The notes under the pieces were generated by a model. It did not search any database, was not told where the DNA came from, and saw nothing but the letters and a program-made list of their open reading frames with translations. A program made the translations under genes and the position numbers. Below, in pieces: positions 612 through 1,627 of a DNA stretch of 5,312 bases (position 1 is the stretch's first letter; every line of letters starts with the position of its first letter). This stretch comes from a virus (lineage: Duplodnaviria; Heunggongvirae; Uroviricota; Caudoviricetes), in the IMG/VR virus record IMGVR_UViG_2778261418_000026; one strand, 5' to 3'.

Positions 612-1193
612 TTATTCGCCCCTCTTTAGTTTAAAGTGTCCTTTGATGCCACTTACGATAACCGCTACTCCCTTTTCTGCTTCTGCGTAGAAGTCGTAGA
701 TTAGTTTTCGCTTCTTCGTTTCACGTACACCAATAACACGTTTAGTTTTCGTCTTTGTATCTTTCTTAGTTGTATCGATTAGGTATTTTTTACCATTCTC
801 TACTACTATGCGATATTTACCCTTCTCTATATTACTTTTAAGCTGGGGTATGTTCCCCTGTTTTGTTAGACGTGCTGCGGAGGTTGGGGTAAATTTCTTT
901 AGTGGATCTGGATGTACTATTACATCGTAAAGATATCTAGCTTGAATATCTTTAATCATGATAGTACAGCTTACACTAGTACCGGACTTGTTATAAAAGT
1001 ACAGTACAGCGTTCTTTGTAAAAGGTACAGGACCACGATCAATTGCAGCACTCATATCATCACGCATCTTTTTAGATAGTTGGCGTGTTTGCTTGATTAG
1101 CTCGTCTTGGAGTTGATTACCATAGAGTTTTCCTTGTTGATTTAGATAGCCATTTACTGACTTTAGACCCGTGACGGTTGCATTAATTTTCAT
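612..1193 (-). CDS. Hypothetical protein, 193 aa, with a Lys/Thr-rich basic segment ([21 protein letters not shown]) near the C-terminus
   Basis: ATG at 1193..1191 overlaps the TGA of the upstream ORF (ATGA). SD AGGA 8 nt upstream. Basic low-complexity stretch seen in the translation. Function not recognised. Confidence 0.65.
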
Positions 1194-1627
1194 GTTAGTG
1201 ATCCTATTAGTCCTTTTACTATTTTAAATAATCGTAATCCATCGGCATCATTTGCGGGTAGTTTGGCTTTTACTAGAATCGCTTTGTTAAGGTTATCCGG
1301 TAATAGTCCACACGTGGCGATTAATGCAGTCTCAACTACTGCCGCCTGATTTGCCGTTGGAAAGCACCACAAAATATACTTTTTATATGTTTCGCCTGCT
1401 TCAATACGGGAATTTACTGTTTTACTACTGGAAGTGTACTCTACCCAATTTGATTGTTTTGTACTGGTCTTTAGTTTTTTAACGTCTTTTACACCTTTGT
1501 AAATTTGTTTAAGTCCCACATACCAGCCGCCATTATCAAACTGAATAAGATATACAAATGCGGCATAATTACCTGAATCTATATCTTTAATATCCCATGT
1601 TTCGGGATCGTACATTTCCCACATCAT
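1190..1627 (-). CDS. Hypothetical protein, about 145 aa (the ORF is open up to 1678, but the RBS-supported start is ATG 1627..1625); carries a GIY-YIG-reminiscent motif [14 protein letters not shown]
   Basis: The track ORF begins at 1678, which would overlap the divergent lysozyme start. The internal ATG at 1627 is preceded by AAGGG with a 7-nt spacer. Stop overlaps the start of the next gene. The motif resemblance is by eye only. Confidence 0.6.

Follow-up and report, generated by a model that had tools for sequence, protein, structure and literature searches.

The window analysed here (the whole stretch of 5,312 nucleotides) belongs to a siphovirus-like prophage of ~33 kb from Enterobacterales, and the cassette of interest is located at the right end of this prophage. 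Four co-oriented open reading frames follow one another on the minus strand (1190-1627, 612-1193, 291-611 and 1-294), with two ATGA stop/start overlaps and one directly abutting junction, so that the four-gene operon proposed in the initial annotation is real. The first gene (1190..1627, minus strand) encodes a 145-aa stand-alone GIY-YIG nuclease domain protein of the SegE type, read from an ATG at 1625-1627 to a TGA stop at 1190-1192. The mechanical list of open reading frames gives a longer version starting from a TTG at 1678 (162 aa); the ATG at 1627 is retained as the start because it is indicated by the homologue alignments, by the RefSeq gene call and by an AAGGG Shine-Dalgarno sequence 8 nt upstream. 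A protein identical over its whole length (100% by tblastn) is present in RefSeq as WP_097504071.1, under the PGAP/RefSeq name "GIY-YIG nuclease family protein". Directly downstream, with a start codon overlapping the GIY-YIG stop codon in an ATGA, lies a gene designated X (612..1193, minus strand), whose product of 193 aa is strongly basic (pI 10.0, 39 Lys+Arg) and has no known domain. The third gene, Y (291..611, minus strand), encodes a soluble protein of 106 aa, also with no known domain, and gene Z (1..294, minus strand), the last one before the prophage end, encodes 97 aa with C-terminal hydrophobic segments. On the other side, and divergent from the operon in this window, is the gene of a T4-type phage lysozyme or endolysin (1668..2120, plus strand; PF00959), and beyond it that of an 88-aa protein (2149..2415, minus strand) with an N-terminal transmembrane segment and a coiled coil, which is holin- or spanin-like; an o-spanin lipoprotein was searched for and no such ORF is found anywhere in the window. 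Two non-coding elements separate these genes: a bidirectional terminator-like hairpin (2126..2153) between the lysozyme and 88-aa genes, and an AT-rich intergenic region of 40 bp (1628..1667) between the divergent GIY-YIG and lysozyme start codons, in which the dyad AAATACC...GGTTATTT supplies the ribosome-binding sites of both genes. The IS2 end of the window is the sole part with near-identical DNA among isolated phages.

The presence of a GIY...YIG-like motif in the first gene had been noticed in the initial annotation, together with the concern that it could reflect a degenerate or unrelated fold. The motif holds, as it occupies residues 25-38 with 10 residues from Y26 to Y36, and the protein matches a profile of the GIY-YIG clan, PF19835 (SegE_GIY-YIG), with 60.9 bits (E 1.8e-16), well over the gathering cutoff of 25 bits; residues 13-111 align with positions 8-109 of the 123-position profile. 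All the listed homologues also carry PF19835, and PHROG 7363, annotated as 'homing endonuclease', is matched with an E-value of 1.1e-14. The alignment by hhalign of the family profile with a small alignment of I-TevI, SegD, SegE, SegG and two long PF19835 endonucleases gave a probability of 98.7% (E 3.9e-16), a value that is partly circular since two direct PF19835 relatives are included in the target. Against single sequences the same profile scored weakly, with SegE marginal (5.5e-4) and both I-TevI (E 0.39) and T4 EndoII, or DenA (E 0.23), not significant. Searches of PDB sequences by phmmer and hmmsearch, with the protein and with the family profile, returned nothing relevant, and NCBIfam contains no match to the protein.

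At the structural level, the AlphaFold model used is the one based on the alignment of 77 homologues (a single-sequence model with a pLDDT of 38 was discarded). It reaches a pLDDT of 94.5 and a pTM of 0.86, and displays the order beta-beta-alpha-beta-alpha, with strands 23-30 and 35-41, helix 69-76, strand 81-89, helix 92-106 and a terminal helix 127-144. A Foldseek search of BFVD with this model yielded 20 matches at E<1e-3 (best 5e-10, TM 0.69), mostly named GIY-YIG or Seg-like endonucleases, along with several unnamed proteins and one terminase large subunit. Foldseek found no significant match in the PDB (best E 1.5), and the fold assignment thus rests on predicted viral structures and profiles and not on a solved structure. 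The beta-beta-alpha core is present in the model and its structural neighbours are GIY-YIG homing endonucleases, which, with the profile match, counters the concern about a degenerate or unrelated fold. By profile and by predicted fold, the 145-aa protein is a member of the GIY-YIG family, and its earlier description as a small nuclease is fitting. The assignment itself is already known, given that Pfam holds the family and RefSeq names the identical protein; it is the genomic context that is undescribed, as literature searches on PF19835 and on GIY-YIG proteins in lysis cassettes yielded no account of such an arrangement.

The nuclease domain is flanked by a 21-residue N-terminal extension and by the C-terminal helix (residues 127-144/145, codons 1193..1249, minus strand), which lies outside the Pfam domain and may be, judging from the model, an oligomerisation or partner-binding element. 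The Pfam search revealed no second domain, the model comprises the core and one terminal helix only, and neither of the two approaches detected a DNA-binding domain of the NUMOD, HTH or zinc finger type in the 145-aa protein. This compact form is common, most of the best 150 relatives from a search of 1.8 billion proteins being likewise 125-170 aa long. Rare alleles of 300 and 305 aa occupy the same cassette slot with an added N-terminal Cys-rich, DUF723-like domain, whose match to DUF723 (17 bits) is below the cutoff of 20.9.

The alignment of the 77 homologues, which share 38-92% identity, shows nine highlighted residues to be 100% conserved: Y26, Y36, G38, K40, Y64, S67, S68, E99 and N114. 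The first three belong to the GIY...YIG beta-hairpin (codons 1514..1555, minus strand), where motif A reads V-Y26-L ... Y36-V-G38 on the first two strands of the model, and hhalign maps them onto Y6, Y17 and G19 of I-TevI. The downstream residues, which the initial annotation could not place, can now be proposed in part: Y64, E99 and N114 are candidates for three of them, but no Arg is found and position 47 is a Lys. Y64 is part of a Y64-T-S-S67-S68 stretch (codons 1424..1438, minus strand) that recalls the YLGSG of T4 SegE. It aligns with SegE Y30, within a Y-x-[GS]-S motif common to both proteins, whereas its equivalence with I-TevI H40 is uncertain at the residue level because Y64 falls 2 positions before H40 in the profile alignment. 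E99 (codon 1331..1333, minus strand; 77/77 homologues) is located on helix 92-106 and is predicted, from sequence and model, to be the metal-binding Glu. It forms an E-x3-I motif with I103, also invariant, as do E75 and I79 in I-TevI, and in automatic alignments it falls no more than one residue away from E75. The codon of N114 (1286..1288, minus strand) corresponds to a column that is invariant across the family, the two long PF19835 endonucleases, SegD, SegE (N83) and I-TevI (N90). As for the motif-B Arg, the K40 through K47 segment (codons 1487..1510, minus strand) offers candidate substitutes, K40 being invariant and position 47 being Lys in 66/77 and Arg in 11/77 homologues; their position relative to I-TevI Arg27 is a matter of spacing. 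Lys47 sits 11 residues past Y36, the Tyr of YVG, while Arg27 is 10 residues after the YIG Tyr in I-TevI, and Lys47 would be at best a motif-B equivalent placed by spacing only. T4 SegE likewise has no Arg at this position. Finally, an insertion of ~20 residues (42-63), including the invariant W61, separates strand 2 from the Y-x-x-S-S motif.

The partners of the GIY-YIG gene are less readily classified. Gene X overlaps or abuts the GIY-YIG stop codon in the loci examined, and its 120 homologues listed among 242 are all unnamed or 'hypothetical', of the same length and free of fusions. Orthologues of X match no consistent Pfam or PHROG family, giving only isolated single-member PHROG matches at E about 0.002-0.004; X itself has no match among PDB sequences and none in isolated phages better than E about 4e-3, and no DNA-binding domain was detected in it through Pfam, PHROG, PDB sequences or the homologue survey. 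The idea that X could be the detached DNA-binding domain of the long PF19835 endonucleases was considered and rejected, as BLASTP against ORF150 of phage PSD9 shows no relation but a chance, hairpin-like match of 12 residues (E 0.11), and the C-terminal extension of this ORF150, the one case compared, has no similarity to X. Z is holin-like by sequence, with sub-threshold matches to GTA_holin_3TM in 5/5 orthologues (best E 3.4e-4).

The gene order is a conserved property of this phage family. The cluster comprises the 88-aa membrane protein, the endolysin, the GIY-YIG protein, X, Y and the holin-like Z. The order from lysozyme to Z is found in 80/80 IMG/VR loci retrieved via the GIY-YIG protein, and both the GIY-YIG and lysozyme genes are present in 67/67 loci retrieved independently via X; eight loci over both sets are incomplete, with Z, Y or X missing, mostly at a contig end. 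All genome loci examined also contain the GIY-YIG gene, the same order being observed in genomes of Cronobacter, Enterobacter, Edwardsiella, Serratia, Salmonella, Phytobacter and Pseudescherichia, and tblastn comparisons show the 88-aa gene conserved upstream of the lysozyme gene at most of the related loci. Synteny is thus universal, and the junctions with the basic protein X are tight and often overlapping. The GIY-YIG gene is under strong purifying selection, with dN/dS values of 0.047 and 0.076 for two unsaturated pairs. The orientation of the lysozyme gene relative to the operon varies, being divergent in 59 of the 80 loci and co-oriented in 21, where the endolysin gene ends up 3-10 nt upstream of the GIY-YIG gene; the co-oriented arrangement is also seen in Serratia. 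The members in E. coli are integrated into yegD by a serine recombinase, and the phage is of the cos type, with a terminase resembling lambda gpA and with the cassette in its late region. Among distant stand-alone PF19835 proteins, P0133 adjoins a lysozyme gene, its intact GIY-YIG gene being followed by a truncated remnant of X, and P0140 adjoins a GTA-type holin gene.

On balance, we favour the reading that the gene encodes an active Seg-derived nuclease which has become a fixed component of the phage and is expressed with the lysis genes. The gene is best explained as a vertically inherited part of a lysis-proximal cluster and not as a roving homing endonuclease. The protein would be a Mg2+-dependent DNA endonuclease descended from a Seg-like free-standing endonuclease, and its catalysis would use Y26, Y36 and Y64, K40 and/or K47, E99 and N114. 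Late production together with the lysis proteins, a timing that gene order alone suggests, is supported by the co-oriented endolysin in the 21 loci, by the holin-like Z and by the distant PF19835 genes beside lysozyme or holin genes. We hypothesise that DNA would be cleaved with little intrinsic sequence specificity, or that specificity or DNA affinity would be given in trans by X, and that the targets would be DNA outside capsids, coming from the host or a competitor or left unpackaged. The alleles with a Cys-rich domain in the same slot, the pI of 10 of X, the junction between the two genes and the X remnant after P0133 suggest a link to DNA and to X. Against a partnership with X stand its lack of a detectable DNA-binding domain and its truncation at the P0133 locus, where the GIY-YIG gene is intact. 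A further difficulty for this reading is that a temperate phage whose DNA is unmodified has no obvious means of keeping a non-specific nuclease away from its own DNA during replication.

A bolder version of this proposal, to which we grant a low probability, is that the minimal GIY-YIG nuclease together with X, and possibly Y, forms a lysis-coupled DNase module destroying all DNA unprotected by capsids at lysis. Such a module, recruited from a homing endonuclease via loss of its DNA-binding domain, might clear host or competitor genomes or viscous DNA, or might keep phage DNA from being taken up or sampled by CRISPR systems; it would represent a fourth functional class in lysis cassettes, beside holin, endolysin and spanin.

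A homing role had been suggested in the initial annotation and is the rival that survives best, though we consider it unlikely. It would make of the protein an active free-standing homing endonuclease engaged in intronless homing like the T4 Seg proteins, which would cut related phages with a different or no allele and spread by gene conversion, DNA recognition coming from X or from the short terminal extensions. The closest relatives in sequence and structure are indeed Seg-like homing endonucleases of T4-like phages, and the 305-aa allele with its extra Cys-rich domain in the same slot is in line with such a role. The divergent lysozyme promoter may also sit inside the GIY-YIG gene, a retention device that has been described for the T4 seg genes (PMC2988022). 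In addition, breakpoints of mosaicism fall at or within the gene. Between L006 and L009, identity is ~92% on both flanks of a replaced block running from the 88-aa gene through the lysozyme gene to the GIY-YIG gene, and the two sequences become similar again within one base of the start codon of X; L017 and L019 are 94-96% identical except in the 5' half of the GIY-YIG gene. Phage nuclease genes are known at boundaries of genetic exchange (PMC10055350), but these comparisons concern two locus pairs only, and such recombination joints are not specific to homing, being common at gene borders in phage mosaics anyway. Classical homing is disfavoured mainly because the 145-aa form has no DNA-binding domain and because the gene is universal (147/147 cassette loci) and not sporadic. 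Moreover, a dN/dS of 0.05-0.08 and invariant catalytic residues contrast with the cycle of gain and decay typical of fixed homing endonuclease genes.

It is more doubtful still that the protein is a structure-specific nuclease which, ahead of packaging, removes branches from replication and recombination intermediates or resolves them, in the manner of T7 endonuclease I and T4 endonuclease VII, its analogues by role, or of Slx1 within the superfamily. Slx1 is a GIY-YIG structure-specific nuclease, and gene 3 of T7, which encodes endonuclease I, adjoins the lysozyme gene 3.5. The small size and the absence of a sequence-reading domain are what would be expected of an enzyme recognising structure, and a gene in the late region of such a cos-type phage would be suitably placed. 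No other resolvase is annotated in the ~33-kb prophage, yet one could hide among its early genes, since most of these are unannotated. No similarity to Slx1-type or other resolvases is found, all matches in Pfam, PHROG and BFVD belonging to the Seg/Tev branch.

We regard as slightly less probable again a function in exclusion, defence or anti-defence, in which a prophage nuclease with its own promoter would attack incoming DNA in the lysogen or early in infection. A sigma-70-like promoter candidate (1650..1678, minus strand; TTGATA-17-AATAAT, 10/12 matches) lies directly upstream of the GIY-YIG gene, extending into the beginning of the lysozyme gene on the other strand, and could allow the GIY-YIG gene to be expressed in the lysogen. 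This candidate has the top score in the scan, but its hexamers are only loosely conserved in related loci and it constitutes weak evidence, as the scan gave 8 promoter-like sites in total, below the shuffled expectation of 13.4. The position of the operon at the extreme end of the prophage, a common place for accessory genes, and the allelic replacement of the block, as expected in an arms race, would also fit. PADLOC does match the GIY-YIG protein (E 1.2e-6), but only with the generic homing-endonuclease model 'HEase', and X, Y and Z have no meaningful match to any defence family. Furthermore, the phage family carries the cassette as a core element and not as variable cargo, and constitutive expression in the lysogen is hard to reconcile with a holin-like last gene and an endolysin gene that is co-oriented in a quarter of the loci. 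Least probable is that the GIY-YIG fold has lost its catalytic activity and now serves the lysis proteins as a structural or regulatory partner. This would account for the missing motif-B Arg, the absent DNA-binding domain and the location between endolysin and holin-like genes, but conflicts with the complete conservation of the predicted metal-binding Glu, the Asn and all three Tyr in 77 diverged homologues, with alleles in the same slot that have gained a putative DNA-binding domain, and with T4 SegE, which is active although it also has no Arg there (PMC2988022).

What is worth recording in this locus is the context. A nuclease domain stripped of its DNA-binding module and kept under strong purifying selection is locked between endolysin and holin-like genes in each of about 150 related prophage loci from many enterobacterial genera, and is tightly joined to two conserved proteins without known function. 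Should the favoured reading be correct, with the nuclease acting alongside the lysis genes, a selfish endonuclease would here have become a core phage function, and a single small gene with clear active-site mutants would give a handle on what use a temperate phage has for a DNase at lysis. Alternatively, if the protein is still a homing enzyme and acts in trans with X, it would be a homing endonuclease of split architecture.

Among known systems, T4 SegE, one of the Seg-type free-standing GIY-YIG homing endonucleases (PF19835/PF01541), has been shown by experiment to be active (PMC2988022, Table 1); it is also phage-encoded and matches the same Pfam model with a lower score (36.5 vs 60.9 bits). 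Both proteins have the hairpin, with a Lys just past its YIG glycine, and share the Y-x-[GS]-S motif as well as the Glu of the helix and the Asn, whereas the insertion at residues 42-63 sets the present family apart. SegE is a protein of 205 aa with a C-terminal DNA-binding region and the T4 seg genes are sporadic among related phages; the protein described here is reduced to 145 aa and the nuclease domain, and its gene is universal in its own phage family. The nearest relatives among isolated phages, with 33-36% identity over residues 5-117, are the long PF19835 endonucleases of T4-like phages, such as ORF150 of Shigella phage PSD9 (357 aa) and G3MUT7 of Escherichia phage Bp7 (271 aa). They are also the top structural matches (E 5e-10 to 1e-9, TM 0.69) and have the W61/Y64/SSS insertion in common with it, but they possess 150-230 additional C-terminal residues and their genes are located in the hypervariable nrdC-nrdD region of lytic myoviruses and not in a lysis cassette. 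The catalytic domain of I-TevI corresponds in its hairpin Tyr and Gly, in N90 and in the order of secondary-structure elements, while its Arg27 has no Arg counterpart here, its His40 would be replaced by a Tyr-containing motif, and its linker, zinc finger and helix-turn-helix DNA-binding domain are absent. T4 endonuclease II (DenA) lies on a different branch, as indicated by hhalign (E 0.23, probability 0.3%). DenA is an early gene, and T4 shields its own DNA by hydroxymethylcytosine, a discrimination of which no equivalent is evident for the phage studied here. Nevertheless, DenA belongs to the same superfamily, is about as long (144-aa translation), lacks a separate DNA-binding domain and fulfils a non-selfish role as a stand-alone GIY-YIG phage nuclease degrading host DNA (PMC1564403), and is thereby the closest functional parallel to a domesticated GIY-YIG protein that stands alone.

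The GIY-YIG gene (1190-1627, minus strand) encodes a protein of 145 aa, read from an ATG at 1627 to a TGA at 1190-1192. A longer ORF with a TTG start from 1678 also appears in the ORF list, the ATG being favoured by the RefSeq call, by homologues that all start M-x-W and by an AAGGG Shine-Dalgarno sequence 8 nt upstream. The 14-residue motif reported in the initial annotation lies at residues 25-38, with the claimed spacing of ten residues between Y26 and Y36, and the gene is indeed the first of a four-gene operon, as four co-oriented ORFs are joined by ATGA overlaps or direct abutment. 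Several lines of evidence establish that the protein carries a GIY-YIG domain. The single Pfam-A match is PF19835 SegE_GIY-YIG (60.9 bits against a cutoff of 25, E 1.8e-16), with no second domain in the 145 aa; the PHROGs match is 'homing endonuclease' (E 1.1e-14), and the 100% identical RefSeq entry WP_097504071.1 bears the name 'GIY-YIG nuclease family protein', the family, the Pfam model and this name being already known. The structure was predicted with AlphaFold from 77 homologues (pLDDT 94.5, pTM 0.86), this model being used rather than the single-sequence one (pLDDT 38), and comprises strands 23-30 and 35-41, helix 69-76, strand 81-89 and helix 92-106, with a further helix at the C-terminus (127-144). 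A Foldseek search of predicted viral structures gave 20 matches at E<1e-3, most of them to GIY-YIG or Seg-like endonucleases, the best at E 5e-10 with a TM of 0.69. Searches of the PDB gave nothing significant with Foldseek and no sequence match with HMMER.

The protein has 1172 matches at E<=1e-3 among 1.84 billion representative proteins, and most of the best 150 are likewise 125-170 aa long. Since P0140, a more distant stand-alone relative of 137 aa, matches PF19835 from end to end (134.5 bits), such short proteins are core members of the family. In two longer representatives, of 305 and 300 aa, this domain sits behind a Cys-rich N-terminal region (17 bits against DUF723, under the 20.9 cutoff), and a 196-aa form retains half of this region. 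The 305-aa form occupies the identical genomic slot in otherwise near-identical prophages.

The surroundings of the gene are most simply read as a lysis cassette. The order tail-tip fibre, variable small genes, protein of about 88 aa, T4-type lysozyme, GIY-YIG, X, Y, Z and prophage end recurs in Cronobacter, Enterobacter, Edwardsiella, Serratia, Salmonella, Phytobacter and Pseudescherichia genomes. The lysozyme-GIY-X-Y-Z block was found in 80/80 IMG/VR loci recovered through the GIY-YIG protein, three of them shortened by the contig end, and the GIY-YIG and lysozyme genes accompany X in all 67 loci recovered independently through X. It is therefore secure that the GIY-YIG gene is a universal component of a lysis-proximal cassette in a family of enterobacterial prophages. 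Z (1-294, minus strand) is a small membrane protein with C-terminal hydrophobic segments, matching GTA_holin_3TM in 5/5 orthologues tested, although below the Pfam threshold (best E 3.4e-4). Gene order, the lysozyme and the holin-like Z thus place the gene within a probable lysis cassette. Among three more distant stand-alone relatives examined, two likewise come after tail genes and sit beside a lysozyme or GTA-type holin gene; in one of these two a 48-aa remnant of X comes next. The 88-aa protein (2149-2415, minus strand) combines an N-terminal transmembrane segment with a coiled coil, and no o-spanin-like lipoprotein ORF was detected anywhere in the window. The single lysozyme gene diverges from the GIY-YIG gene in 59 of the 80 loci (about three quarters), as it does in the window (1668-2120); in the other 21 it has the same orientation and ends 3-10 nt before the GIY-YIG gene, an arrangement also seen in the Serratia loci L015 and L016. 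Its orientation is a one-gene inversion polymorphism within the cassette.

X (612-1193, minus strand) is a basic protein of 193 aa (pI 10.0, 39 Lys+Arg) and Y (291-611, minus strand) has 106 aa; across the related loci X measures 186-203 aa with pI 10, Y about 107 aa and Z about 97 aa. X orthologues belong to no consistent Pfam or PHROG family, and neither PDB sequences nor isolated phages gave X a match better than about E 4e-3. Those of its 242 homologues that were listed (120) are all 'hypothetical' or unnamed, come from Enterobacterales or unlabelled assemblies, and include no fusion. Y is conserved, without a consistent domain match; PADLOC reported nothing for X, Y or Z. X and Y occupy positions where spanins might be expected, and neither has a transmembrane segment or lipobox. 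A hairpin-like string of 14 residues in X (residues 126-139; 793-834, minus strand) resembles the GIY...YIG motif, and BLASTP aligns it to the genuine motif of a phage endonuclease (E 0.11); it is regarded as chance because the remainder of the domain has no counterpart further downstream.

A promoter candidate upstream of the GIY-YIG gene (TTGATA-17-AATAAT, 1678-1650, minus strand) matches 10/12 positions; related loci conserve its hexamers only loosely, and promoter-like sites in the scan totalled fewer than the shuffled expectation. Any promoter of the lysozyme gene probably sits within the GIY-YIG coding sequence, and a bidirectional terminator-like hairpin was found by sequence scan at 2126-2153. 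The divergent start codons are separated by 37-40 bp (1628-1667 in the window; likewise in the related loci L006, L009, L017 and L019-L021), and a conserved dyad, AAATACC...GGTATTT, supplies both ribosome-binding sites. This dyad could be an operator for a shared regulator.

The window corresponds to a prophage's right end. The same DNA is found over 1-5236, at 97.9% and 94.8% identity, in two complete E. coli genomes, both copies lying inside a disrupted yegD as the final portion of a ~33-kb element that encodes, in order, a large serine-type recombinase, lambda-type terminase, portal, capsid, tail tube, tail-tip fibre and the window genes; similar DNA was absent from the isolated phages of the GenBank phage collection. 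In the related locus L013 (NZ_CM151386.1), 16456-18054 and 20609-21341 hold a large serine-family recombinase (yegD integration) and a class I SAM-dependent methyltransferase gene, the latter split into two ORFs in that strain. Positions 5238-5312 are the first 75 bp (left end) of IS2, inserted in the tail-tip fibre gene, so that the 490-aa ORF at 3677-5149 is only the C-terminal part of this gene, and the window's prophage copy is probably defective. Of the two near-identical E. coli prophages, one keeps an intact fibre gene (about 1100 aa) and the other has it divided into two parts. Between the fibre and lysis genes lie three genes (2483-3636, minus strand) for proteins of 66 aa (very acidic, pI 4.05), 98 aa (PHROG 7961) and 215 aa (DUF8377 / PHROG 4524). 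The DUF8377 gene recurs in both other E. coli prophages and in Serratia loci, the other two outside the window only in the E. coli copies, and none of the three in the Cronobacter, Enterobacter, Edwardsiella or Salmonella relatives; the trio could represent a variable module of host-range or fibre-accessory function.

We hypothesise that the protein would most likely act as a DNA endonuclease dependent on Mg2+, which would descend from a homing enzyme of the Seg-like kind and be produced together with the lysis proteins. It would cleave DNA outside capsid protection while lacking a sequence-reading domain of its own, perhaps in combination with the basic protein X. That the gene belongs to a lysis-coupled DNase module is a tentative proposal, which we consider rather unlikely as it stands. 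The closest rival to the main hypothesis is a still-selfish homing enzyme acting in trans with X. Cronobacter and Enterobacter loci L006 and L009 (5205-6456) share ~92% identity across the tail fibre and once more from a point no further than one base from where X starts; the replaced block in between comprises the 88-aa, lysozyme and GIY-YIG genes (43% amino-acid identity for the last). The Salmonella-type loci L017 and L019 (5973-6234 / 5977-6723) are 94-96% identical save in the 5' half of the GIY-YIG gene, where a 145-aa allele faces a 305-aa allele with the added Cys-rich N-terminal domain. Such joints fit the reported tendency of nuclease genes to sit at exchange boundaries (PMC10055350), and homing is not established from two comparisons only. 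A structure-specific debranching nuclease and an exclusion nuclease expressed in the lysogen are further alternatives. The initial annotation's GIY-YIG assignment is borne out by the PF19835 match and the predicted fold. Its suggested homing role, in the classical form, is disfavoured because the protein lacks a DNA-binding domain and because the gene occurs universally. An inactive GIY-YIG fold is disfavoured by the invariance of the Glu, Asn and Tyr residues. Our literature search found no characterised member of this sub-clade, nor any account of a GIY-YIG nuclease that forms a fixed part of a lysis cassette.

The invariant positions in the 77 homologues (38-92% identity) are Y26, Y36, G38, K40, W61, Y64, S67, S68, I75, L86, E99, I103 and N114. 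The dN/dS is 0.047 between the window and the second E. coli copy and 0.076 between two Pseudescherichia copies, comparable with neighbouring genes. On these grounds the domain looks catalytically competent, not degenerate as had initially been allowed for; a stand-alone SegE-type GIY-YIG nuclease domain that keeps its catalytic-type residues under purifying selection is secure. T4 SegE, an experimentally active endonuclease (PMC2988022, Table 1), matches PF19835 more weakly than the window protein (36.5 bits) and falls just below the 22.6-bit cutoff of the general model PF01541 (21.6 bits). The family profile aligns with 98.7% probability to a small alignment of I-TevI, SegD, SegE, SegG and two long PF19835 endonucleases, a partly circular result because the last two are direct relatives, and not significantly to the single I-TevI or T4 EndoII sequence. 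In the profile comparison Y26/Y36/G38 pair with Y6/Y17/G19 of I-TevI; E99, on the helix that follows strand 3, shows the E-x3-I spacing found at I-TevI E75; the N114 column is invariant across the window family, SegD, SegE and I-TevI, and Y64-x-x-S-S corresponds to the YLGSG motif of SegE. Of the downstream residues that could not initially be placed, E99, N114 and Y64 are thus proposed, whereas the motif-B Arg is absent. Its likeliest counterpart, judged by spacing, would be position 47 (Lys in 66 homologues, Arg in 11), because it lies 11 residues past the YVG Tyr and I-TevI Arg27 lies 10 past it; the active SegE likewise has no Arg at the motif-B position.
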